Assembly: GCA_024958655.1 (NCBI GenBank)
Contig: JANWUR010000013.1
Span: forward strand, 35,043-99,042
DNA from: Cyanobium sp. FGCU6
Lineage (GTDB): Bacteria > Cyanobacteriota > Cyanobacteriia > PCC-6307 > Cyanobiaceae
DNA: 64,000 bases
Reading direction: 5' to 3'
In this document: positions 35,276 through 49,273 of the stretch, in pieces
Position numbering within the stretch: position 1 is the first letter of the stretch
How the letters are laid out: each line of letters begins with the position of its first letter
Notes under the pieces: model-generated
Told to the model about the DNA's origin: nothing
Seen by the model: only the letters and a program-made list of their open reading frames with translations
Databases searched by the model: none
Made by a program: the position numbers and the translations under genes

Positions 35276-35865
35276 GCCTGCGGGTGAGCGGCGGGCGGCG
35301 GCTGCGCAGCCCCAAAGGAGACGTGGCCCGTCCCACCAGCTCGCGGGTGCGGCTGGCGGTGATCAACCTGCTGGCCCCCCGGCTGGCCGGGGCCCGCTGG
35401 CTGGATCTCTGCTGCGGCAGTGGCGCGATGGCCTGCGAGGCGCTGCAGCACGGGGTGGCCGAGGTGGTGGCGGTGGAGCGCGACCGGAGGATAGCCGCGG
35501 TGGCCCGGGCCAACCTGGAGGCGGTGCAGGGGGGACTCACCGGAGAGGAGGGAGATCAGGGCCCCCGCGTGCGCGTGGACGCGGAAGACGTGTTGCGCTG
35601 GTTGAAGCGACCCTGCACCACCCGCTTCGATCTCATCTACGCCGATCCGCCCTATGCCGCCGGGCTCTACGCCCCGATCGCCGCGGCGGTGCTGAAGGGC
35701 GGGTGGCTGGCCCCCGCGGGGATTCTGGTGTGGGAATGTGCGAGCGATGCGGTGCCCGAGCTTCCCCAGGGTTGGCGCTGCCATGACCGACGCCGCTACG
35801 GGGGGAGCACAGTGGTGCTGCTGGAGGCGGCGCCTCGGCAAGAGAACGGAACCTTGCCAACCTGA
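35272..35865 (+). CDS. rsmD: 16S rRNA m2G966 methyltransferase
   Basis: RPT, LDLCCGSG, ADPPY. Confidence 0.92.
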   Translation: MSLRVSGGRRLRSPKGDVARPTSSRVRLAVINLLAPRLAGARWLDLCCGSGAMACEALQHGVAEVVAVERDRRIAAVARANLEAVQGGLTGEEGDQGPRVRVDAEDVLRWLKRPCTTRFDLIYADPPYAAGLYAPIAAAVLKGGWLAPAGILVWECASDAVPELPQGWRCHDRRRYGGSTVVLLEAAPRQENGTLPT

Positions 35866-36040
35866 AGGTCGTCAGGCGTATGGATTGGACAACGTTCGCC
35901 ACCGGCGGGCTAAACAATTGTCATCAACCCTCAATCATCTGCCGCACATCCGCTGCAGAACTCAGGCCAACCTGCTGAGCAGAACAAGTTGGCCCAGATT
36001 CCGATGTAACCAGGTAGGGCCCGTTCTGGCACCGAGAACC

Positions 36041-36748
36041 ATGCCCACCCTCAGCTCCAGTCACTCCAGGCCATCCCCCACCACCGCCTTCAACCCGAAG
36101 CGCCTCCTCTCACGGGCGCTGATGGCAGCCGCTCTGCTTGCTGGTGCCGGCGCAGCGCTCTCCGCGGGTTCCGCTCAGGCAGCAACCGGTTGTGGGGTTC
36201 AGATCACCTGGGCAGCCTGGGCAGGCGGTCAGTCTCTGACCTGTGACGACAAAGAATTCACATATCTCTCCACACAAACCATCGGCGATCTTGCCAGCTC
36301 AGTCGTCCAGGCCGATCAACCCCTCCCGGGCGATTATCTGTTTAATCTGGATTTCCCCGTTTTCACGACAGATCCATTCGCCTTCACTTACCAAGCGACC
36401 ATCACAGATCCAACGCGCTTCTTCAATGAAGTTGATCTCGACTCCGATGCAGATTCGGCCGCGAATCCACCCAGTATTCTAACGGCAACATATACATTTG
36501 CTGGCGTAAATTCTCCCATTGTCCTGACGAGCACAAATGGCTCCTCAGCTGTTCAAGGTGTTGAAGGACACCCGACCATCATGACAGTCAATAACGTGTA
36601 CAACGGCGACGGTGCTATTGACTCTATGCAGAACAGCTACCAGCAAAACGAGGTCCCAGGTCCGGTGCCTATCCTCGGCGCCGGCATGGCTTTCGGCTTC
36701 AGCCGCAAGCTGCGCCGTCGCATCCAGGGGCAGCGCGTCACAGGCTGA
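36041..36748 (+). CDS. PEP-CTERM-type (VPGP) sorted surface protein
   Basis: Signal peptide ending SAQA; low-GC middle; tail VPGPVPILGAGMAFGFSRKLRRRI. Confidence 0.88.
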   Translation: MPTLSSSHSRPSPTTAFNPKRLLSRALMAAALLAGAGAALSAGSAQAATGCGVQITWAAWAGGQSLTCDDKEFTYLSTQTIGDLASSVVQADQPLPGDYLFNLDFPVFTTDPFAFTYQATITDPTRFFNEVDLDSDADSAANPPSILTATYTFAGVNSPIVLTSTNGSSAVQGVEGHPTIMTVNNVYNGDGAIDSMQNSYQQNEVPGPVPILGAGMAFGFSRKLRRRIQGQRVTG

Positions 36749-36771
36749 CGAACACGTCTGAAAGCGTGATC

Positions 36772-36801
36772 GGGCCCCGCCGACCGGCAGGGCCCTTTTT
36801 T
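36772..36801 (+). terminator. Intrinsic terminator
   Basis: gggccc...gggccc hairpin followed by a T6 run. Confidence 0.75.
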
Positions 36802-37331
36802 CTGCCCATTCCGGCTTGCCGACCCTGCCCGGCTCGGGAAAGCCCTGGTGCATCTGGCCGCCTATCTCGACCCTTCCAATCCCCTTCTGAGCCGCCGCCG
36901 CAACACCTTTGCCGCCCAGGTTCTGTGGCAGCGCTGGGCTGGGCGGCAGGGGGAGGCATCCGCAGCGCCAACGGCCTGCAGAGCAGCCTGTTCCACGAGC
37001 TCAAGAGCAGGATCGCCGCCGTGCGGGAGGCGTTCAACAGATCCTCCAGCACCAACAGGCTGCAAGTTCACTGCGCAAACCGGCAGCGAATCCTTGGGTC
37101 GCCACAAAGGAATCAAGCCCCCGGCGGCGTTGCGCGCAAACCTGCTGCAGGAGGTGGAGCAAGCGGAAATCCGGGCCGCAGATTGGGTTTCAGCAGGCGC
37201 CACCGCTGGAGACGGCAAGCCGTAAGCAAGGCCTGTGTCCGAGACAAAAGCGAAGTTGTCGTCGCCCTCGAGCCAGGAGGGCGGGGGTTCGGGCCTCAAG
37301 GCCGAACGGCCCGGGGGACGGCCTGGAGCGT

Positions 37332-37445
37332 TCAGCCGCCCAGGGCGCTGCCGCGGTTGTACTGGTTCCAGGCGGCCACGAACAGACCCAGCAGCGTCAC
37401 GGGGATCAGACCGAGCACGATGCCACAGAGCAGGGGTTCGATCAT
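37332..37445 (-). CDS. petG: Cytochrome b6f subunit V
   Basis: [37 protein letters not shown]. Confidence 0.97.
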
Positions 37446-39869: not shown

Positions 39870-41306
39870 ATGAGAACGATCGCTGCGCTGCTCCTGGCCC
39901 TGCCGCTCGCCGGCCCGCCGGCGGCGGCCCTCGCCAACGGCGCCCCGGCCGCGGCGCCGACCTCCGTGCTGAGGCCCCGCACCGTCGCCCCCCTGCCGGG
40001 GGGGCTGGATGCGGTGCCGATGCTCAACGACAACAACCCGGAGCTGATCCGCTCCGCCGGCATCCTGCTCTCCACCTTCGCCGGCAGCGGACAGGCGGAT
40101 CCCTCCGCCCACCTCGACCATCCCCTGAGCGGGCGCTTCGACCTGTTCAGCCACCACGTGTACGCCGGCCGGCCCGAAACTCTCGACTCCACGCTGTGGC
40201 TGGCGCTGGTGGGGCGGCCCCGGGGCGATCGACCGGTGCGGCTCCAGCTGCTGGCCGGTTCGACGGCCCTCTCCCAGTCCCCCGACGGCCGGGAGCCGGC
40301 GGCGCCGTTCCTGCCCCTGCCCACCCTGATGCCCCAGGGGGCGAGCACCACTCCCGCGTGGTCGGGGCCGGGCAGCCGGGTGGCCACCGAACTGCTGCAG
40401 CGGCAGCGGGGCGCGGGGCTGCCCTCGGGCTGGACCCTGGAGCCCGGCCGGATCACCACCCTGCTGGAGCTGCCGCTGCCGGTGCGGGGGCTCGATCCCC
40501 TGCTCAACGGCCGCAACCTCCAGCTCCAGCTCCAGAGCGACGGACCGCTCGACCTGGCCCTGCTGGCGGCCCCCGCCGACGGGGAGCGGCCTCCGTCGGC
40601 GACTGTCTGGCGCCAGCTGCTCGAGGGCGGGCTGAGCCCGAAGGAGCATGCGCCCACCCCGAAGGGAGCCCCGGGCGGGATGGTGTATTCCCGCGTCAGC
40701 GGCGTGCAGACGGGCAGCCACTGGCGGGGCCGGCTGGCGGCGCCGGGCAGCAGCGAGCTGCCGGTGAGCCGGGCGCCGATCTCCTGGCCGATCGCCTCCC
40801 TGGAGCGGGGCAGCCTGGGAACCGGCCAGGTGCAGACCGCCCCGCTTTCGGCCTTCTACCCCGGCACCGCCTGGGCAGCCCACGGCAACTACGGCGTCAC
40901 CTACGACCTCGTGCTGCCGCTGGTGAACGACACCGGCCGGCCGGCAGCCCTGGCGCTCGCCTTCGAATCGCCCCTCAAGCACGATCGGCCCATGGGGGGT
41001 CTGCGCTTTGCGGTGACCCCCAGCCGCGCCGTGACCTTCCGGGGCACGGTGGAGGTGAGCGGCCTCGACGGCCCCCAGGGACGCCCCCTCGGCAGGCAGG
41101 CGTTTCACCTGGTGCTGCGGGCCGGCGAGGAGGGACCGCCGCTGGGCCAGGTGCGCCTGGCCCCCGGCGAACGGCGCTCCCTGCGGGTGCGGCTGATCTA
41201 CCCCGCCGACGCCACGCCGCCCCAGGTGCTGTCGCTGCTGCCGCTGGCGCCGGTGGCCGGCGGGGCTGTGAAACAATCCGGGATTACGCCGTCCGCCACC
41301 CCGTGA
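39870..41306 (+). CDS. DUF3370 family protein
   Basis: LNDNNPELI, FDLFSHH, HGNYGVTY. Confidence 0.88.
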   Translation: MRTIAALLLALPLAGPPAAALANGAPAAAPTSVLRPRTVAPLPGGLDAVPMLNDNNPELIRSAGILLSTFAGSGQADPSAHLDHPLSGRFDLFSHHVYAGRPETLDSTLWLALVGRPRGDRPVRLQLLAGSTALSQSPDGREPAAPFLPLPTLMPQGASTTPAWSGPGSRVATELLQRQRGAGLPSGWTLEPGRITTLLELPLPVRGLDPLLNGRNLQLQLQSDGPLDLALLAAPADGERPPSATVWRQLLEGGLSPKEHAPTPKGAPGGMVYSRVSGVQTGSHWRGRLAAPGSSELPVSRAPISWPIASLERGSLGTGQVQTAPLSAFYPGTAWAAHGNYGVTYDLVLPLVNDTGRPAALALAFESPLKHDRPMGGLRFAVTPSRAVTFRGTVEVSGLDGPQGRPLGRQAFHLVLRAGEEGPPLGQVRLAPGERRSLRVRLIYPADATPPQVLSLLPLAPVAGGAVKQSGITPSATP

Positions 41307-42391
41307 GCCAGACCAGGAAGCGCAGGGTCTTCCCCTTCACCGCCATCGTTGGTCAGGAGGAGATGAAGCTGGCTCTGCTGCTCAATGTGATCGATCCACG
41401 CATCGGCGGCGTGATGATCATGGGCGACCGCGGCACGGGCAAGAGCACCACGATCCGCGCCCTGGCGGATCTGCTGCCGGCGATCGACGTGGTGGCGGGC
41501 GACCCTTACAACAGTTCGCCGGCGGATCCGGATCTGCAGAGCACCGAGGTGCGCCAGCGGCTGGAGCATGGCGAGCAGGTGCCGGTGGAGCAGCGCCAGG
41601 TGCCGATGGTGGATCTGCCGCTGGGCGCCACCGAAGATCGCCTCTGCGGCACGATCGACATCGAGAAGGCCCTCAGCGAGGGCGTGCGGGCGTTCGAGCC
41701 GGGGCTGCTGGCCAAGGCCAACCGCGGCCTGCTCTACGTGGATGAGGTGAACCTGCTCGACGACCACCTGGTGGACGTGCTGCTGGATTCGGCGGCCTCG
41801 GGCTGGAACACCGTGGAACGGGAGGGGGTGAGCGTGCGCCACCCGGCCCGCTTCGTGCTGATCGGCTCCGGCAACCCGGAGGAGGGAGAACTGCGGCCCC
41901 AGCTGCTCGATCGCTTCGGCATGAGCGTGGAGGTGCGCACGGTGCGCGATCCGGAGCTGCGGGTGCAGGTGGTGGATCAGCGCACCAGCTTCGACAGCGA
42001 TCCCGACGGCTTCAACGACGCCGTGCAGTCGCACCAGGACGCGCTGCAGGCGCGGGTGGTGGAAGCCCAGCAGCGCCTGCCGCACGTGAGCATCGACGAC
42101 GACCTGCGCATCCGCATCTCGGCGGTGTGCGGCGAACTGGATGTGGACGGTCTGCGGGGCGACATCGTGACCAACCGCGCGGCCCGGGCCCTGGCGGCCT
42201 TCGAGGGCCGCACCGAGGTGGGCGACAACGACGTGGCCCGGGTGGTGGCCTGCTGCCTGCGCCATCGCCTGCGCAAGGACCCACTGGAGCAGATCGACTC
42301 CGGCGATCGGGTGGTGAAGGTGTTCTGCAAGGTGTTCGAGCGCCCCGAACCCAGCGACCGCAGCGCCTTCCAGCTGGCCCTCGCCGGCTGA
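41303..42391 (+). CDS. chlI: Magnesium chelatase ATPase subunit I
   Basis: FPFTAIVGQEEMK, GDRGTGKST, DEVNLLDDH, LRHRLRKDP. Confidence 0.97.
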   Translation: MSQTRKRRVFPFTAIVGQEEMKLALLLNVIDPRIGGVMIMGDRGTGKSTTIRALADLLPAIDVVAGDPYNSSPADPDLQSTEVRQRLEHGEQVPVEQRQVPMVDLPLGATEDRLCGTIDIEKALSEGVRAFEPGLLAKANRGLLYVDEVNLLDDHLVDVLLDSAASGWNTVEREGVSVRHPARFVLIGSGNPEEGELRPQLLDRFGMSVEVRTVRDPELRVQVVDQRTSFDSDPDGFNDAVQSHQDALQARVVEAQQRLPHVSIDDDLRIRISAVCGELDVDGLRGDIVTNRAARALAAFEGRTEVGDNDVARVVACCLRHRLRKDPLEQIDSGDRVVKVFCKVFERPEPSDRSAFQLALAG

Positions 42392-42401
42392 ACCCTTGCG
42401 C

Positions 42402-42472
42402 ATCCTCGGCATCGATCCCGGTCTGGCCCGCGTGGGCTACAGCGTGATCGACGTGGAGGCCGGCGGGCAGCA
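42402..42472 (+). repeat. Orphan copy of the ruvC 5' end (71-bp direct repeat, copy 1)
   Basis: Identical to 45527-45597 except a/g at 42441/45566; preceded by TTG CGC at 42396. Confidence 0.95.
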
Positions 42473-42504
42473 AAGCGCCAACGGAAGGCGCTACGAGAAT
42501 AAAT

Positions 42505-42675
42505 CAGAGCTGCAAAACCTCAGCAACTCGTAAAGCCTGCCCAGAGTCGGCCGGCCTACTCAATTCCGCAGCCGAACAGCAGGTCGGTGGAGCTGAATCC
42601 CACACGATTCATATTCTCGGCGATGCGCTGGTCGGCGTTGTCGATCAGGCGTTCGCCTGCTGCTGCTCAACGGCG
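42505..42675 (-). pseudogene. Fragment resembling the YddA/BacA/ABCD-type ABC transporter membrane domain
   Basis: Frame reads LIDNADQRIAENMNRVGFSSTDLLFG, similar to the IDNPDQRIxED signature; no start codon. Confidence 0.45.
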
Positions 42676-42798
42676 TCCTGCGCTGCCACTTGCTGCTGCA
42701 ACGGCATGCTCCGCTCGAAGACGTGCCGGCCCCCGCAGCTGGCCGCTGAGCTCCAGCTGGTGCTGGGGGCATCGCGCTTGGGATGCTGTGGGTCCTGC

Positions 42799-43989
42799 TC
42801 ACCCGGGGGCTGGCCCTGGGGGCCCCGCTGCTACAGGCATGGCGTTGAAAGCTCCGGCACGGGCCCGACGCAGCAGCTCCGAGGGCCTCAGTCCCTGGAA
42901 GCGCTGGAAATCGGCGCTGAACTGGCTGGTGGAGCGATAGCCACATTCCCGTGCCAGCACCTGCACCGTGTCGGAGTCGCGGGGGGCAGAGAGCCTGGCA
43001 AAGGCATGGGCCAGGCGCAGCTGGCGAACCCACTGCATCGGGCTGCACTGAAATCGCTGCTGAAAAGCGTTGTGCAGAGTGCGGCGCGAATAGTGGCTGC
43101 GCTGCTCGAGCAACTGCAGGCTGATCGGCTGATCGAGGTTGGCTTTGATGTAATCGAGCAGGGGCTCGATCAGGTCATCGTCGCCATGGGAAGCAGTTCC
43201 CCGCACCTCGCCCGCGGCGACCGTCTCCGCTTCGTCGAGGTCAGCAAACGCCAGCAGGGCCAGCAGACGCGGAAGCTGCCGGTCGAACAGGAGCGGATCC
43301 TGCAGCCCGTCGCCGATCCGCTCCAGCTGGCAGATGCTGGCAAGTAAACATTCCAGGGATGCCAGCAGGGCGGTGCCGCGCCGGTCGTGGCTGCCGCCAA
43401 CCTGCTGGGGCGAGCGCAGCGGCCGGGCGTTGAAGGGTGCCTGCGCGCCCCGCTCGGCGTGGATCCGGCAGGCACTCTTGAACAACTCCGCCGGATCCAG
43501 GGGCAGCAGCGTGCCGCTGGCAATCCGGCTGCGCGCGATCAGCACCCAGGGTTCCCCCGAGAGGATCAGACCAGAGCCGGCCCGCAGCTCGTGCTGCAGC
43601 CCGTGCTGCTCCAGCCGCGAGACACCCTGGTGCTGTAGCAGCAGCCAATGGCCGTCATGGCCATCAACCTCCAGCCGCAGCGGCGAGCCAAGCCAGGCGG
43701 CCATGCAAAGCGGTCCTGGCTGTAGGTGGCCGTCGCGGTGCCACCAGGCCGACTCGCCCGCGAGGGATACCAGCCTCCGCAGCGGCAGCAGACCGGCCAG
43801 AACGCGGGCGGTGTCGGCCACACGGGGGGAGGGCTGCAGCCAGGGCCGCAGGGGGTGGCGCAGCGTCCGATTGGGCAGTCGAGCCTGCCGCGACCTTCTG
43901 CTCTGATGTTGCGGCAGGTCTGTCAAGACAGCTCCGGGATCAACGGCAGAGCGAATGTGCCGAAGCGACACAACCCGGCGCATGATCAA
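42799..43989 (-). CDS. AraC-family transcriptional regulator
   Basis: C-terminal double HTH: YIKANLDQPISL...SRRTLHNAF...SPMQW...ECGY...FSADF...PSE. Confidence 0.92.
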   Translation of the reverse strand: MIMRRVVSLRHIRSAVDPGAVLTDLPQHQSRRSRQARLPNRTLRHPLRPWLQPSPRVADTARVLAGLLPLRRLVSLAGESAWWHRDGHLQPGPLCMAAWLGSPLRLEVDGHDGHWLLLQHQGVSRLEQHGLQHELRAGSGLILSGEPWVLIARSRIASGTLLPLDPAELFKSACRIHAERGAQAPFNARPLRSPQQVGGSHDRRGTALLASLECLLASICQLERIGDGLQDPLLFDRQLPRLLALLAFADLDEAETVAAGEVRGTASHGDDDLIEPLLDYIKANLDQPISLQLLEQRSHYSRRTLHNAFQQRFQCSPMQWVRQLRLAHAFARLSAPRDSDTVQVLARECGYRSTSQFSADFQRFQGLRPSELLRRARAGAFNAMPVAAGPPGPAPG

Positions 43990-44405
43990 CAGAAAGCAAT
44001 TCTGGCCGACCCGCCTACTAGGACAGAAAAATTGTGAAATTTATATGCACCGCACCCCCACCAGAACCATCAAAAACAGGCAGTAGTAACAAAATCAGGA
44101 AATGATCAGCAACAGCAGTACCTTGAGGCGCAACACAGCAGCAACAGATATGCTAACCTAAAAATGATAGGTCGGCTTTTGCAGTTCTCCGGTTTTCAGA
44201 TGTCATGACTTTCTGCCAAACATCTCAGCAATTCTTACCCCATCAGCCTGATCTCAGCAAAGCCGATGTTGACGTCCAGGAAATTCCCGCCACCCGGGGA
44301 GATTCAGGCCTTTGCAATAATCTGCAGCCATGCCAAGACACCTACATAAATCCTCGAAACCGGGTACGCAATTTTACAGCCCGACAACCTCACGCTCATC
44401 TTAAT

Positions 44406-45452
44406 ATGAAATCTACAACAGTCGCTATTGCCAAGCCCCTGTCAAAGCTTTCACTTGTTATACCAGCTGTGTCAGCAGTACTCCTGGCGGCAGGTAGTGC
44501 TCTTGCTTCAGGGAACACCGCTTACGGCGTGCCAACTCCACCAGGGCCTTTTGTCGTGCCGGTTCCAAGCAAAATCCTCCCCGAGCCCTGGCGTGTTCCA
44601 GGAAAAGAATTCTCGACATATCCTGATCTTAATTCTGCTAATAACCAGGCGATCGGCCAGTCGATGTTCTGGGATGGCCTCGGCGGCGTGCAGGATGCGA
44701 AGGTTTATTCGAATATTTTTCAGCTTGACGCTTTGGCGTACTCCAGCGACGCTTTATTCCATGCCGTCCTAGAAAGACGAACAAACTTGTTATTATCTTT
44801 CGTAGGCGACTCCGGCGGCAATTCTGTCTATGCCATTAACCCCTATGGAAATATATCTATTTGGGCGACCAATCATACAGTATGGTCTGGTCCTCCAGCC
44901 TCATTTGATTTGGATGCGTTAGAAATCTGGGGACCCGAGCTCGTAGTCGCAAACCGTTTTTCCCTACAGGGCGATGTCAGTCCAGATGGCACTCAGCCTG
45001 CCTCTGTCATGAATGATAATGGAACAGTTAAATATACACCCTTAGACATTGCAACTGCCATCGGCGCTCCTCAGCTTGCTGATGATATTGATCTTGATGG
45101 CCTTATGGTTTTTGGAGATGAGCTTTTGTTTAGCATTCAACCCATTGGTGGATTTGATGGTGGTGAAATCTGGCATTGGACTGGCGGAGCCGCGCCAGCC
45201 GAATTCCTCAAGTTTGGCAAAAATTTGCTAACCAGTGATCCCGATGATCTGATTACCTGGAACACCGGTTTCAACATTCAAGACTACTTTGCACATCAGG
45301 GTTATACTATCAATTCTGAAAACATTGATGCGATAGAAGCTGCCTCGACTGTTCCCGGCCCCCTGCCGCTCCTTGGAGTCGGCACCGCCTTCGGCCTCAG
45401 CCGTAAGCTGCGCCGTCGGATCGAGGGTGCACGCTTGCTGACCAAAGGCTGA
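44406..45452 (+). CDS. PEP-CTERM-type (VPGP) sorted surface protein
   Basis: Signal peptide ending ALA; repeated DxDAL/G motifs; tail VPGPLPLLGVGTAFGLSRKLRRRI. Confidence 0.88.
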   Translation: MKSTTVAIAKPLSKLSLVIPAVSAVLLAAGSALASGNTAYGVPTPPGPFVVPVPSKILPEPWRVPGKEFSTYPDLNSANNQAIGQSMFWDGLGGVQDAKVYSNIFQLDALAYSSDALFHAVLERRTNLLLSFVGDSGGNSVYAINPYGNISIWATNHTVWSGPPASFDLDALEIWGPELVVANRFSLQGDVSPDGTQPASVMNDNGTVKYTPLDIATAIGAPQLADDIDLDGLMVFGDELLFSIQPIGGFDGGEIWHWTGGAAPAEFLKFGKNLLTSDPDDLITWNTGFNIQDYFAHQGYTINSENIDAIEAASTVPGPLPLLGVGTAFGLSRKLRRRIEGARLLTKG

Positions 45453-45520
45453 TTCTTTCTGCCACGCTCGACCATTGCTGATTCGCCGACCACACTGGAT
45501 CACCAGCAGTCCGGCCTCCG

Positions 45521-45988
45521 ATGGTGATCCTCGGCATCGATCCCGGTCTGGCCCGCGTGGGCTACGGCGTGATCGACGTGGAGGCCGGCGGGCAGCAGCA
45601 GTTGCTCGACTGCGGCATGATCAAGACCGACCCCGGCCGCAGCGACGGCGAGCGGATGGTGGAGATCGCTGCCGATCTGCGCCAGCTGATCCGCCGCTGG
45701 CGCCCCGATCTCGCGGCGGTGGAGAAGTTCTTCTTCTACCGCTCCAGCACCACCATCTCTGTGGTGCAGGCCCGCGGCGTGCTGGTGATGACCCTGGCCC
45801 GCTTCGCGGTTCCGGTGGTGGAGTTTCCGCCGATGCAGATCAAGCTGGTCCTCGCCGGCCATGGCCATGCCGAAAAGGGCGAGGTGCTCGCCGCCGTGAT
45901 GCGTGAGCTGGCGCTGGAGGCGCCCCCCCGGCCCGATGACGCCGCCGATGCCCTGGCGGTGGCGCTCACCGCCTGGTTTCAGCGATGA
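45521..45988 (+). CDS. ruvC: Holliday junction resolvase
   Basis: [23 protein letters not shown]. Confidence 0.96.
45527..45597 (+). repeat. 71-bp direct repeat, copy 2 (within intact ruvC)
   Basis: Matches 42402-42472 at 70/71 positions. Confidence 0.95.
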
Positions 45989-46608
45989 GCGAACCCGCCA
46001 CCAAGGACTCCCTGCGCCGCCACTACCGGCGGCTGCGCCGCGACAGCCTGGCGGCCGCCCTGCCGGCCCTGCAGAGCGCGGGCTGCCGGGAGCTGCCGGA
46101 CCTGCTGCCTCCCGGACGCCGCCTCGGCCTGTACTGGCCGGTGGGCAGCGAAGCCGATCTTCGTCCCCTGGCGGCCCTGCTGCCCGATCGGCTGGCACTG
46201 CCGGCGATCCGGCCCTGGAGCGGCGGCCCGGCCGCGGGCGTGAAGGGCGAGCAGCGCCTGGTGTACCTGCCCTGGAGCCCGGGCCAGCCACTCGCAGACG
46301 ACGGCTGCGGCATCCCGGCACCGCTGGAGGGATCCGCGCCTCTGGCGGCCGGGGCGCTGGGGCTGCTGCTGGTGCCGGCTCTGGCGATGGATGCCGAAGG
46401 CCTGCGGCTGGGATCGGGGGGCGGGTGGTACGACCGCCTGCGCAGCGATGCGGCCTGGGGAGCCGTGCCGGCCCTGGCGGTGCTGCCGGCGGCCTGTGTG
46501 GCGCTCTCTCTGCCCCGTGATCCCTGGGATGTGGCCTTCGATGGCTGGCTCGACGAGGGCGGCCTGCACCTGGTTCCACGAAGGCGAATGAACGTTGCAA
46601 GCTCCTAA
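45985..46608 (+). CDS. 5-formyltetrahydrofolate cyclo-ligase
   Basis: [10 protein letters not shown]...[11 protein letters not shown]; YWPVGSEAD. Confidence 0.9.
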
Positions 46609-46674
46609 GGCTGGGAGCCCGCGCACGCACAGCAGGCGGAGGTTTGCCAGGATCGCTTCAGTGATGCCTCCGCC

Positions 46675-46947
46675 TTGGACCTGACGCCCCTGGATCGCAC
46701 CACCCATCAGCTGGCGGCCACCAACACCACGGACACCACCGACACCACCGAGGGCGCACACCCCCGCGCCCTGTCGGTTGCGGCGCAGGCGGCCTCGGCC
46801 AGCGGTCCCACCGCCGCGGAGCGGATCCTGGCCGCCGAAATGGCGGGCAGGGCGGAAGGCAGTGACGCCCTCTCGATGATGGTGGGCTCGATCGCCCGGA
46901 TGGTGCAGGCGGGCAAGACGCGCGACAGTCGGTGGAAAGCCTCCTGA
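46675..46947 (+). CDS. Small conserved hypothetical protein; start uncertain
   Basis: GC3-rich frame ending DALSMMVGSIARMVQAG...W. Confidence 0.6.
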   Translation: MDLTPLDRTTHQLAATNTTDTTDTTEGAHPRALSVAAQAASASGPTAAERILAAEMAGRAEGSDALSMMVGSIARMVQAGKTRDSRWKAS

Positions 46948-46963
46948 ACACGCCTCCACTTCG

Positions 46964-47464
46964 ATGAAGCTCCGCTCTCTCTCCTGGCTGCTGGCCAGTG
47001 GCACACTGTTAATGGCCGGCGGTGGCGCCCATGCCCATGGCATCGAGTCGAGCCTCGAGCGCCTGGCGCCTCTCACCGATGGCAAAGCCTTCGAGCGGCC
47101 CCGCAGCTCTGACACTTCCCTGCAGTTGGAGAGCCGGTTCTCCTCCGGACTGCCGGCCATCGACGCCGCGGTTCGCCTCGTTCCTCCGGATGGCGGCACG
47201 CCGATCGATCTCGGCCGCACCGACGCCGAAGGACGACTCACCTTCGCCCTGCCGCGCGGCGCCCGGCCCGACTGGGAGCTGCAGGTGGATGCCGGACCCG
47301 GCCACCGCGACTACCTCGAGCTGCCCACCGCTCCCGGGGCCAGCCAGGCCCGCACGAGCGAAGGCCTTCGCCTCCCACGGCTCGCGGCGGCGGCCAGTCC
47401 GATCGCTGCCCTCGGCCTGATCGGCTGCCTCGGCGCCGTGCCGCTGCTGCGCCGGCGCCGCTGA
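46964..47464 (+). CDS. Secreted/anchored hypothetical protein with an AHG N-terminus and a transthyretin-like segment
   Basis: Signal peptide ending AHA-HG; GRTDAEGRLTF...VDAGPGH; C-terminal TM plus RRRR. Confidence 0.75.
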   Translation: MKLRSLSWLLASGTLLMAGGGAHAHGIESSLERLAPLTDGKAFERPRSSDTSLQLESRFSSGLPAIDAAVRLVPPDGGTPIDLGRTDAEGRLTFALPRGARPDWELQVDAGPGHRDYLELPTAPGASQARTSEGLRLPRLAAAASPIAALGLIGCLGAVPLLRRRR

Positions 47465-47465
47465 C

Positions 47466-47915
47466 GTGATGGGCACCGGCAGTCCCGCCCTGGACCGGAT
47501 CGTGGAGAGGCTCGGCAGCACCGCCGATCCCAGGCGCCGCTACGAGTACGTGCTGTGGCTGGCGAAGAAGCTGCCCCCCCTGCCGGAGGACTACCGGCAG
47601 GACGTGTTCAAGGTGCGGGGCTGCGTGTCGCAGGTGTATGTGGTGGGACAGCTGCAGGAAGGCCGCCTTCATTGGCAGGGCGATTCGGATGCGGCGATCA
47701 CCAAGGGCCTGCTGGCACTGCTGATCGAGGGCCTGGAAGGGCTCACCCCGGCCCAGGTGGCAGCCCTCGATCCAGCCTTCCTTGCCGAAACCGGGCTGCA
47801 GGCAAGCCTCACCCCCTCGCGCGCGAACGGCTTCCTCAACATCTTCCGGATGATGCAGACCCAGGCCCGCTCCCTCGGCAGCCCCGGGACCGATGCCGCT
47901 GCCGGGGCCACCTAG
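47466..47915 (+). CDS. sufE: Fe-S sulfur-transfer protein SufE
   Basis: KVRGCVSQV, DSDAAITKGL, SLTPSRANG. Confidence 0.94.
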   Translation: MMGTGSPALDRIVERLGSTADPRRRYEYVLWLAKKLPPLPEDYRQDVFKVRGCVSQVYVVGQLQEGRLHWQGDSDAAITKGLLALLIEGLEGLTPAQVAALDPAFLAETGLQASLTPSRANGFLNIFRMMQTQARSLGSPGTDAAAGAT

Positions 47916-47965
47916 CCTGGATGCCGTTGGATTTCTAGGATCGGAGGTTTGCGGGACTGCGGCCC

Positions 47966-49273
47966 ATGGCGATCGGCGTCGGCTTGCTCGGACTGGGCAC
48001 GGTGGGGGCCGGCGTCGCCGCGATCCTGACCAGTCCGGAGGGGCGCCACCCCCTGGTGGGGGCCCTCGACCTGAAGAAGGTGGCGGTGCGGGATCCCGGC
48101 CGGGTGCGGCCGGTGAGCCTGCCGGCGGAGGTGATCACCACCGATCCCGAAGCGGTGGTGGACGATCCGGCGGTGGAGATCGTGGTGGAGGTGATGGGCG
48201 GCCTGGAGCCGGCCCGCAGCCTGATCCTGCGGGCGATCGCCGCCGGCAAGCCGGTGGTGACCGCCAACAAGTCCGTGATCGCCCGCCACGGTGAGGAGAT
48301 CGCCGCCGCCGCCGCCGAGCGGGGGGTGTACGTGCTGATCGAGGCGGCGGTGGGCGGCGGCATCCCGATCATCGAACCGCTGAAGCAGTCGCTCGGCGGC
48401 AACCGCATCCAGCGGGTGAGCGGCATCATCAACGGCACCACCAACTACATCCTCAGCCGCATGGCCGATGAAGGCGCGGCCTACGGCGCCGTGCTGGCCG
48501 ACGCCCAGCGACTGGGCTACGCGGAGGCCGACCCCGCCGCCGACGTGGAGGGCCACGATGCCGCCGACAAGATTGCGATCCTGGCTGGCCTGGCCTACGG
48601 CGGTCCGGTGCCCCGCGCCGCCATCCCCACCGAGGGCATCGACCGGCTGGAGGCCCGCGACGTGGCCTATGCCGCCCAGCTGGGGTTCGTGGTCAAGCTG
48701 CTGGCGGTGGCCCAGCGCATCGGCGATCCCGACGACGCCGGGGTGCAGGCCCTCGATGTGCGCGTGCACCCCACCCTGCTGCCCGTGGATCACCCCCTGG
48801 CCGGCGTGAACGGGGTGAACAACGCGATCCTGGTGGAGGGCGATCCGGTGGGCCGGGTGATGTTCTACGGGCCCGGGGCCGGCGCGGGTCCGACGGCTTC
48901 GGCGGTGGTGGCCGACATCCTGAACATCGCCGGCATCCGCCAGGTGGGGGGCCCCCAGGCCGGGCTCGATCCGCTGCTGGCCGCCAGCAGCTGGCGGCGC
49001 TGCGCCCTGGTGGAGGGCGCCCTCACCAGCCATCGCAACTATGTGCGTTTCCGCACCCACGACCAGCCCGGTGTGATCGGTCAGATCGGCACCGCCTTCG
49101 GCAGCGCCGGCGTGTCGATCCAGTCGATCGTGCAGCTGGAGTGCGACGGCGGCGCCGCCGAGATCGTCGTGATCACCCACGATGTGCAGGAGGCCCGTTT
49201 CCGCGAGGCCTTGGCGGCGATCGAGGCCCATCCGGAGGTGCTCACCGTGGCGGCCAGCCTGCGCACGCTGTGA
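47966..49273 (+). CDS. hom: Homoserine dehydrogenase with ACT domain
   Basis: GLGTVG, EAAVGGGIP, NGTTNYIL, GAGPTASAV, DQPGVIG. Confidence 0.96.
   Translation: MAIGVGLLGLGTVGAGVAAILTSPEGRHPLVGALDLKKVAVRDPGRVRPVSLPAEVITTDPEAVVDDPAVEIVVEVMGGLEPARSLILRAIAAGKPVVTANKSVIARHGEEIAAAAAERGVYVLIEAAVGGGIPIIEPLKQSLGGNRIQRVSGIINGTTNYILSRMADEGAAYGAVLADAQRLGYAEADPAADVEGHDAADKIAILAGLAYGGPVPRAAIPTEGIDRLEARDVAYAAQLGFVVKLLAVAQRIGDPDDAGVQALDVRVHPTLLPVDHPLAGVNGVNNAILVEGDPVGRVMFYGPGAGAGPTASAVVADILNIAGIRQVGGPQAGLDPLLAASSWRRCALVEGALTSHRNYVRFRTHDQPGVIGQIGTAFGSAGVSIQSIVQLECDGGAAEIVVITHDVQEARFREALAAIEAHPEVLTVAASLRTL

Follow-up and report, generated by a model that had tools for sequence, protein, structure and literature searches.

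The junction between chlI (magnesium chelatase subunit I) and ruvC of Cyanobium sp. FGCU6 was analyzed in a 64,000-nucleotide (nt) stretch of contig JANWUR010000013.1 (assembly GCA_024958655.1, positions 35,043 to 99,042), referred to below as the window; all positions are counted from its first letter. At this junction, a segment of 3054 nt that carries no recombinase gene has been inserted into an ancestrally empty site, and ruvC has obtained its present start from the insert. The native ruvC start was left as a stub behind chlI, and the insert is bounded on both sides by a copy of the same 71 nt from the 5' part of ruvC (hereafter, the core). A fragment of a relative's chromosome probably entered the empty site by host recombination, making use of the ruvC 5' homology and of one illegitimate joint (estimated probability, about 0.7). 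The route of integration, as well as the expression of ruvC from the island and any later excision, are inferred. The features are listed in Table 1.

The empty junction in the closest relatives and the insert

For the empty site, a 29-mer from the repeat was scanned across public genomes and metagenomes, and two contigs were obtained, L084 (a metagenome-assembled genome of Cyanobacteriota) and L085. Both were 91–93% identical at the nt level to both window flanks. Each of them had a single core, which aligned to both copies in the window, and the alignment skipped from 42472 to 45527. Their junction consisted of the chlI stop (TGA), 'gccc', TTG CGC, and the core, which was identical to the right copy of the window at 71 of 71 positions, and TTG CGC was the actual ruvC start in both contigs. 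A metagenomic RuvC (P0091), identical to the one in the window at 153 of 155 residues, was encoded on a contig with the order chlI, 4-nt gap, ruvC, and chlI directly abutted ruvC in about a dozen species of the genus. Since the relatives have the empty site, TTG CGC is the native start coupled to chlI and the 3054 nt are an insertion. An initial annotation, made from the letters of the window, had described a native TTG CGC start stranded behind chlI, which agrees with the ruvC start of L084 and L085, and the empty junction to be sought in relatives was found in these contigs and in that of P0091.

In a repeat search of positions 40000–48000, a single direct repeat stood out (71 nt, 70/71 identical, spacing 3125); it is the one given in the initial annotation. 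The remaining repeat families in this 8-kb region were at most 38 nt long and 70–90% identical, and the 71-nt repeat is therefore not due to chance. Its sole mismatch was A at 42441 against G at 45566, by which codon 16 reads AGC (Ser) in the left copy and GGC (Gly) in the right one. Gly was present at ruvC codon 16 in every relative aligned and Ser in no lineage, so Ser16 of the stub is derived; the change is best read as a later mutation in a dead ruvC copy.

At the left junction, the chlI stop (42389–42391) was followed by 'accc' (4 nt), TTG CGC, and the left repeat copy. The chlI gene, with a GTG start at 41303, encodes 362 amino acids (aa), the same length as called in relatives, and was 93–94% identical at the nt level to those of L084, L085, and L110. 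The stub behind it had been described as 25 codons with a Gly-to-Ser change; 25 codons are indeed derived from ruvC and carry Gly16Ser, but the open reading frame (ORF) runs on through 20 codons of the insert, 45 in all. Residues 1–27 of the stub matched NF000711 (E 1.8e-7). At the right junction, ATG GTG directly preceded the right repeat copy. The RuvC encoded there matched NF000711 over its full length (208.6 bits, cut-off 163) and PF02075 (125.8 bits), and there was no second full-length ruvC in the genome.

The insert contained an AraC-family gene, a PEP-CTERM-like gene, and gene debris. Its ORFs had no integrase, transposase, or recombinase domain, as Pfam and NCBIfam scans matched AraC helix-turn-helix (HTH) domains only; the initial annotation was right in this respect. 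No inverted repeat pairing the insert ends was detected in the repeat search, and the insert was not found elsewhere in its own genome, except for a PEP-CTERM tail of ~80 nt. A transposon or insertion sequence was rejected on the grounds of no transposase domain, no terminal inverted repeats, and a duplication of 71 nt. All PF00589 matches of the genome were outside the insert, the nearest being an integron integrase ~13.8 kb downstream (window ~59380–59982). Its involvement was considered unlikely based on the distance of 13.8 kb and the junction sequences: in GGGCAGCA/AAGCGCC and CCGATGGTG/ATCCTC (the slash marks the joint), no GTT core was seen by eye, with no attC model applied.

Table 1. 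Features of the chlI–ruvC junction (window positions)
Feature	Position	Strand	Basis or remark
chlI (Mg-chelatase subunit I), conserved left flank	41303..42391	+	Pfam AAA_lid_2 and Mg_chelatase matches
ruvC stub ORF, 45 codons, TTG CGC start, Gly16Ser	42396..42533	+	reading frame; NF000711 match
Left copy of the 71-nt repeat, A at 42441	42402..42472	+	repeat search; empty-site-type alleles at core positions 21 and 51
Insert, 3054 nt, absent from the closest relatives	42473..45526	.	L084/L085 alignments
ABC-transporter debris, ~30 codons, 'IDNPDQRI' segment	42560..42649	-	TAG stop at 42557–42559
Gene X (rhomboid-like membrane protein), 3' remnant, frameshifted, internal stop	42648..42848	+	genome search match
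AraC-family transcription regulator, longest ORF	42799..43989	-	HTH_18, HTH_AraC
AT-rich divergent intergenic region between araC and the PEP-CTERM-like gene	43990..44405	.	GC 0.47–0.54 vs ~0.70 in flanks
Secreted beta-rich 348-aa protein with PEP-CTERM-like tail (VPGPLPLLGVGTAFGLSRKLRRRI)	44406..45452	+	low GC, 0.46–0.53 vs ~0.70
Donor-type ruvC upstream region, 68-nt spacer and ATG GTG	45453..45526	+	homologous spacer in relatives
Intact ruvC, 155 aa, chimeric	45521..45988	+	donor-type MV start and empty-site-type body (VIDVE...)
Right copy of the 71-nt repeat, G at 45566	45527..45597	+	71/71 identical to the single core of L084 and L085

Origin of the new ruvC start

The sequence 'ccgATGGTGATCCT' was identical, and the spacer homologous, in L086, L088, L105, and L106. 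In L086–L088, the gene order was X (encoding 431 aa), araC convergent with X, a PEP-CTERM-like gene (239 aa), the 68-nt spacer, and ruvC, with homology to the right junction of the window in the PEP-CTERM tail, the spacer, and the start of ruvC. By sequence comparison, ATG GTG and the preceding 68 nt are the native ruvC start region of related lineages, and the view in the initial annotation that the insert had supplied the start of the intact gene could be confirmed. Among RuvCs at least 90% identical to that of the window, two N-terminal alleles were distinguished, (L/M)RILG...VIDVE at empty sites coupled to chlI and MVILG...VIEVE where something separates chlI and ruvC. The RuvC of the window is chimeric, because its MV start is joined to a VIDVE body.

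L105 (G081:C82:1-527), which belongs to the same genus, had the same X (99.7% nt identity over 345 nt), followed directly by the ATG GTG ruvC with no module. As G081 is without the module and L086 has it, presence and absence of the module also occur beside X. At the boundary, the flank alignments of L086 and G081 had only ~6 nt (CGYTGA-like) in common, a short overlap that points to a deletion or insertion by microhomology. In L106, the order was chlI 3' end, ABC-ATPase debris, X 3' remnant, araC 3' remnant, PEP-CTERM-like gene, 68 nt, and ATG GTG ruvC. The chlI 3' end was 96% identical to the window, no ruvC stub was present, and the PEP-CTERM-like gene was of the type in the window (74% aa identity, low GC).

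Route of integration

The ancestor would have had chlI, 4 nt, and ruvC with the TTG CGC start, as in the closest relatives. DNA would have been taken up from a related picocyanobacterium having araC and a PEP-CTERM-like gene upstream of an ATG GTG ruvC, and the incoming piece would have extended from the decayed genes left of araC through the conserved ruvC 5' block, with homology to the recipient on one side only. Integration by the host may then have combined the homology of the short 5' block in ruvC with one illegitimate joint, at position +77 of this gene. The most likely route is Campbell-like, in which a circularised fragment enters by a single crossover, and the alternative is homology-facilitated illegitimate recombination (HFIR) bridging two sister chromosomes; either would place the 71 nt of ruvC 5' sequence at both insert ends. 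The old start would have become the 45-codon stub coupled to chlI, in which Gly16Ser was acquired later, and the working ruvC would have taken over the start codon and spacer of the donor, 68 nt behind the PEP-CTERM-like gene.

The observed layout was recipient flank, native start, core, insert, donor start, core, and the remainder of ruvC. It is of the Campbell type, because a single crossover with a core-bearing circle leaves exactly that arrangement. The right boundary of the repeat (ruvC +77) was in a variable loop where donor-type and recipient-type ruvC cease to align, and since the boundary coincides with the end of the homology between donor and recipient, a homology-limited exchange fits. 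The left end of the insert lies in debris, so the incoming DNA would have been without chlI, which would account for the module not having been transferred by an ordinary double crossover. Gene debris at this end is also to be expected if the insert is a chromosomal fragment. When Escherichia coli was screened for HFIR, the polymerase chain reaction product by which a duplicated homologous segment is recognised was obtained from 56 of 60 recombinants. The 14 sequenced recombinants were confirmed to have duplications of 109–950 bp, which the authors explained by one crossover with a circular molecule (PMC3240628). During transformation, duplications can also arise when donor DNA pairs between chromatids (PMC3784515).

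Several points weigh against entry of a relative's fragment by host recombination. Both core copies in the window have T21 and C51, the alleles of the empty site, whereas C21 and G51 are found throughout the sampled ATG GTG lineages. A plain single crossover is contradicted for the sampled ATG GTG cores, because donor alleles would be expected in one copy. To account for empty-site alleles in both copies, the model has to assume that the core of an unsampled donor was identical, that gene conversion or mismatch repair took place, or that recipient sequence was copied twice. The explanations that remain are thus an identical-core donor, a heteroduplex that was repaired or later converted, or copies templated by the recipient, through interchromatid HFIR or template switching. 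For an exchange that depends on RecA, a homology of 71 nt is short. Neither the true donor nor the sequence that precedes the left end of the insert in it has been sampled, and natural competence of Cyanobium sp. FGCU6 is not established. The left junction (chlI, stub, insert) is based on one assembly. Of the Campbell-style integration of a circular element put forward in the initial annotation, the single-crossover layout stands, and the plain exchange with any sampled ATG GTG core is contradicted by T21 and C51.

The alleles would also fit a replication-based or staggered-break insertion, in which the recipient would have templated both repeat copies. A nascent strand could have switched at ruvC +77 to foreign DNA and back via ~20 nt shared at the core start, or a break with 71-nt staggered ends could have captured a fragment. 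Recipient-type alleles in both copies at the two diagnostic positions, as well as the end of the donor-type sequence at ATG GTG, are in line with such an event. A target duplication of 71 nt is, however, far longer than usual in break repair, and the right repeat boundary at the end of donor–recipient homology is better explained by a homology-limited exchange. An origin of this kind was therefore judged improbable.

The polarity of the event might also be reversed, with the module and the ATG GTG ruvC being resident and the stub brought in by an empty-site fragment (chlI, TTG CGC, ruvC 5'). The exchange would have been homologous in chlI, with an illegitimate joint between ruvC +77 and the debris on the left side of araC, and the ruvC body would have acquired the empty-site type by conversion, either on the same occasion or separately. 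This would explain the empty-site type of both core copies. In a chlI tree, the genome under study did not fall within the large empty-site clade and shared an unresolved polytomy with species that bear the module, and the order in L106 (flanks 95–96% identical to the window) would correspond to the resident state. Reverse polarity would nevertheless require at least two foreign tracts, on the stub side and in the ruvC body, instead of one. Both window flanks were about equally close to the empty-site relatives over several kb, and the divergent low-GC segment was the insert and not the flanks. It was considered unlikely, though slightly less so than a replication-based or staggered-break insertion.

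An assembly artefact, by which co-existing empty and island-bearing strains were merged into a chimeric contig, was regarded as very improbable. The genome is a draft of 69 contigs and both allele types occur in nature. The join of GGGCAGCA (the core end) to AAGCGCC is, however, present in neither parental arrangement, and a mis-walk in the assembly graph therefore cannot make the left join. The repeat copies also differ by a substitution seen in no relative, and the right junction was recovered in an independent Logan assembly of another run (L114, 99.88% identity to window 43835–45556).

The chlI–ruvC junction in the genus

One or two araC genes on the opposite strand and PEP-CTERM-like genes of 250–290 aa were found upstream of ruvC in G003, G108, G118, G089, and G095, with chlI at the left in the first four; the chlI side of G095 was not recovered. 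In G075 and G134, araC adjoined chlI on partial contigs. Modules of this kind at the chlI–ruvC junction were thereby counted in at least 7 species of the genus. The same kind of module was also present in the metagenomic lineages L086–L088 and L106. The cargo tails at the loci of the genus were conserved (...VPGPLPLLGAGTAFGFSRRLRRR...). The AraC of the window was 81–83% identical to its nearest homologues, in L086–L088, and 44–49% identical to the AraCs at the chlI–ruvC site in the genus, which were 60–95% identical among themselves; these identities point to two deeply divergent module classes in the same position. Other cargo was thus found at chlI–ruvC when relatives were surveyed, as the initial annotation had suggested, but not the same duplication: a duplicated ruvC 5' part was present at 0 of 14 relatives' loci tested (at least 9 of them occupied), and none was present in L106 either.

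Within the genus, the junction held nothing, a 133-aa ORF, 1.4 kb, 4.3 kb, or one to two araC genes with PEP-CTERM-like genes. The 133-aa ORF was on the minus strand between chlI and ruvC of L110, a lineage with the MV start (6493–7000). The 1.4-kb and 4.3-kb cargoes, in G010 (L041, 9804–11216) and G009 (L036, 7719–12026), were unrelated to the module. In one clade (G013, L042; G018, L043; G019, L044; G007, L045), ruvC was inverted in place in the interval from chlI to the gene for 5-formyltetrahydrofolate cyclo-ligase, and no convincing inverted repeats explaining the inversion were found around the locus. On these comparisons, the chlI–ruvC junction is a hypervariable hotspot and not a dedicated attachment site. 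A literature search on PEP-CTERM, Cyanobium, and genomic islands gave nothing on the chlI–ruvC locus.

The initial annotation had regarded the insert as a mobile element with ruvC as its attachment site, and this was not supported, given modules without a duplication in relatives and debris at the left end. Accordingly, it is quite improbable that the insert is a self-contained circular element attaching at the 5' end of ruvC, with integration and excision by a site-specific recombinase in trans or by an unspecified route. Such an element would account for direct repeats bounding the whole insert, for a gene rebuilt by the insert, and for a module present or absent beside ruvC in differing left contexts (chlI; X in L086 vs G081). 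It is at odds with the lack of a recombinase within the insert (the nearest being the distant integron integrase), with the absence of the duplication from the other occupied loci, and with the overlap of merely ~6 nt between the flank alignments of L086 and G081. Truncated chromosomal genes at the left end and a cargo head that varies between otherwise homologous modules do not suit it either. A site-specific integrative element (genomic island, prophage, integrative and conjugative element, or tycheposon) was rejected for the same kind of reasons, as there is no integrase of its own and the repeats are not found at other occupied sites.

A more speculative idea, to which we give little credence, is that the araC/PEP-CTERM-like module is a recombinase-free 'homology-riding' cassette, with the ~70 nt of the highly conserved ruvC 5' part, by which it is always accompanied, as a portable homology arm. 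If so, the module would re-enter empty genomes in varied left contexts (chlI, X) by host recombination and leave via the repeat, and the ruvC 5' part would be a functional attachment site, defined by homology, for a family of surface-protein cassettes.

Consequences for ruvC and comparison with known systems

The ruvC gene is now 68 nt behind the PEP-CTERM-like gene, and no terminator-like site was found in between. The 4-nt coupling to chlI has been lost, in agreement with the uncoupling from chlI translation in the initial annotation. The new arrangement is presumably functional, because it is native in L086, L088, and L106. Coupling to chlI persists for the stub, from which a 45-aa peptide may be translated. 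Recombination between the two 71-nt repeats, 3.1 kb apart, could plausibly restore the empty site.

HFIR is known from natural transformation in Acinetobacter, Streptococcus pneumoniae, and Pseudomonas stutzeri. The present case likewise has one homologous anchor (here, the ruvC 5' block), one illegitimate joint, and one-sided homology. HFIR is predicted to delete recipient DNA beside the anchor, not to duplicate it (PMC3240628). Unlike this prediction, a duplication was observed here, which would need two sister chromosomes, as in transformation-induced merodiploidy (PMC3784515).

In Campbell-type integration (suicide plasmids; the 'SCO' class of Amarir-Bouhram et al. 2011, PMC3240628), the duplication likewise equals the homologous segment and flanks the whole insert, no dedicated recombinase takes part, and the target gene is split into a truncated and a complete copy. 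In contrast to that study, the event in Cyanobium sp. FGCU6 is natural, the 'plasmid' would be a circularised piece of chromosome, and the homology is 71 nt instead of 109–950 bp. Unlike the Campbell expectation, donor alleles were not spread reciprocally between the two copies, the donor being unsampled.

Site-specific islands and prophages insert in a gene end and carry a replacement for it; examples are islands that target tRNA genes or other gene ends, and the tycheposons of Prochlorococcus. Flanking direct repeats and a target gene restored by insert-borne sequence are features in common with the present locus. Unlike such islands, it has no integrase, no consistent att repeats at other occupied sites, and debris at the left end, and the likeness is in the outcome only. 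With the flexible islets and hotspots of picocyanobacteria, it shares variable content at one core-gene junction. Unlike in usual hotspots, the gain here left a datable scar, namely the stub, the duplication, and the chimeric start.

The case is a further example of a known process and represents neither a new mechanism of mobility nor a new kind of mobile element. It is a natural record of a core-genome junction gaining a flexible islet without mobile-element machinery, in which the empty site, the donor-type arrangement, the duplicated anchor, and the chimeric gene of an essential type can all be read from the sequence. It also indicates that the start codon and the upstream control region of a housekeeping repair gene can be replaced by their counterparts from another lineage, and that the chlI–ruvC junction is a hotspot for surface-protein variation in freshwater picocyanobacteria.

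Genes of the insert

The cargo protein scored 12.6 bits against TIGR04155 (cyano_PEP), below the cut-off of 21.6, and no Pfam or NCBIfam family was found above cut-off. By eye, its tail consisted of VPGP, a hydrophobic stretch, and RKLRRR, and an N-terminal signal peptide appears to be present. Distant homologues of the protein carried PF07589, and an exosortase was encoded in the same genome (PF09721, 98.3 bits, G000:C13:52615-53331). The AlphaFold model (pLDDT 84) contained mainly beta strands; Foldseek gave no significant match in the PDB, where the only matches were beta-propellers (E at least 0.016, TM at most 0.25). The best description of the cargo is a variable cell-surface protein of the PEP-CTERM type under a divergently transcribed AraC regulator.

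The AraC start is uncertain, as the NCBI gene call had 340 aa from 43821. The C-terminal double HTH was matched by PF12833 (68.3 bits, cut-off 33.6) and PF00165 (41.4 bits, cut-off 26.6). The region between araC and the PEP-CTERM-like gene is presumed to hold the control region of both genes. No consensus promoter was scored within it, in a scan that is uninformative for this kind of organism. With the same limit, the promoter and terminator scan of 42300–45700 gave one promoter-like match, on the wrong strand within the PEP-CTERM-like gene, and no terminator.

To the left of araC, the ABC-transporter debris matched inside large ABC-transporter ORFs of G119, G047, and G125 (78–79% nt identity; parent protein 690–740 aa). 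The X remnant (window 42657–42839) was 52% identical to X residues 369–428, with one TGA, and 79% identical at the nt level to the X 3' end in G081. Full-length X is located beside araC in L086, next to the PEP-CTERM-like module (2292–3587, 431 aa), and is rhomboid-like (Pfam Rhomboid, 23 bits, cut-off 22.6), with a weak match to rhombosortase TIGR03902. A homologue of X, 44% identical, was located elsewhere in the genome of Cyanobium sp. FGCU6 (G000:C47:16889-18019).

The PEP-CTERM tail DNA of ~80 nt (window 45351–45434) was 78–88% identical across many paralogues and species, the gene bodies being unrelated. The cargo gene in the window had its tail and downstream spacer in common with L086, but its low-GC head was another one. 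Heads may be swapped by recombination anchored in the tail. A second region with a PEP-CTERM tail, ~5 kb upstream (window ~35836–37332), was variable as well: it comprised ~760 nt in L085 vs ~1500 nt in the window, and the tail region alone aligned (77%). Homologues of the cargo protein, 59–61% identical, were found in the picocyanobacteria L107 and L109, after mqo and, in L107, also before a TP_methylase gene. As this is a different locus, the same head family occurs in several hotspots.

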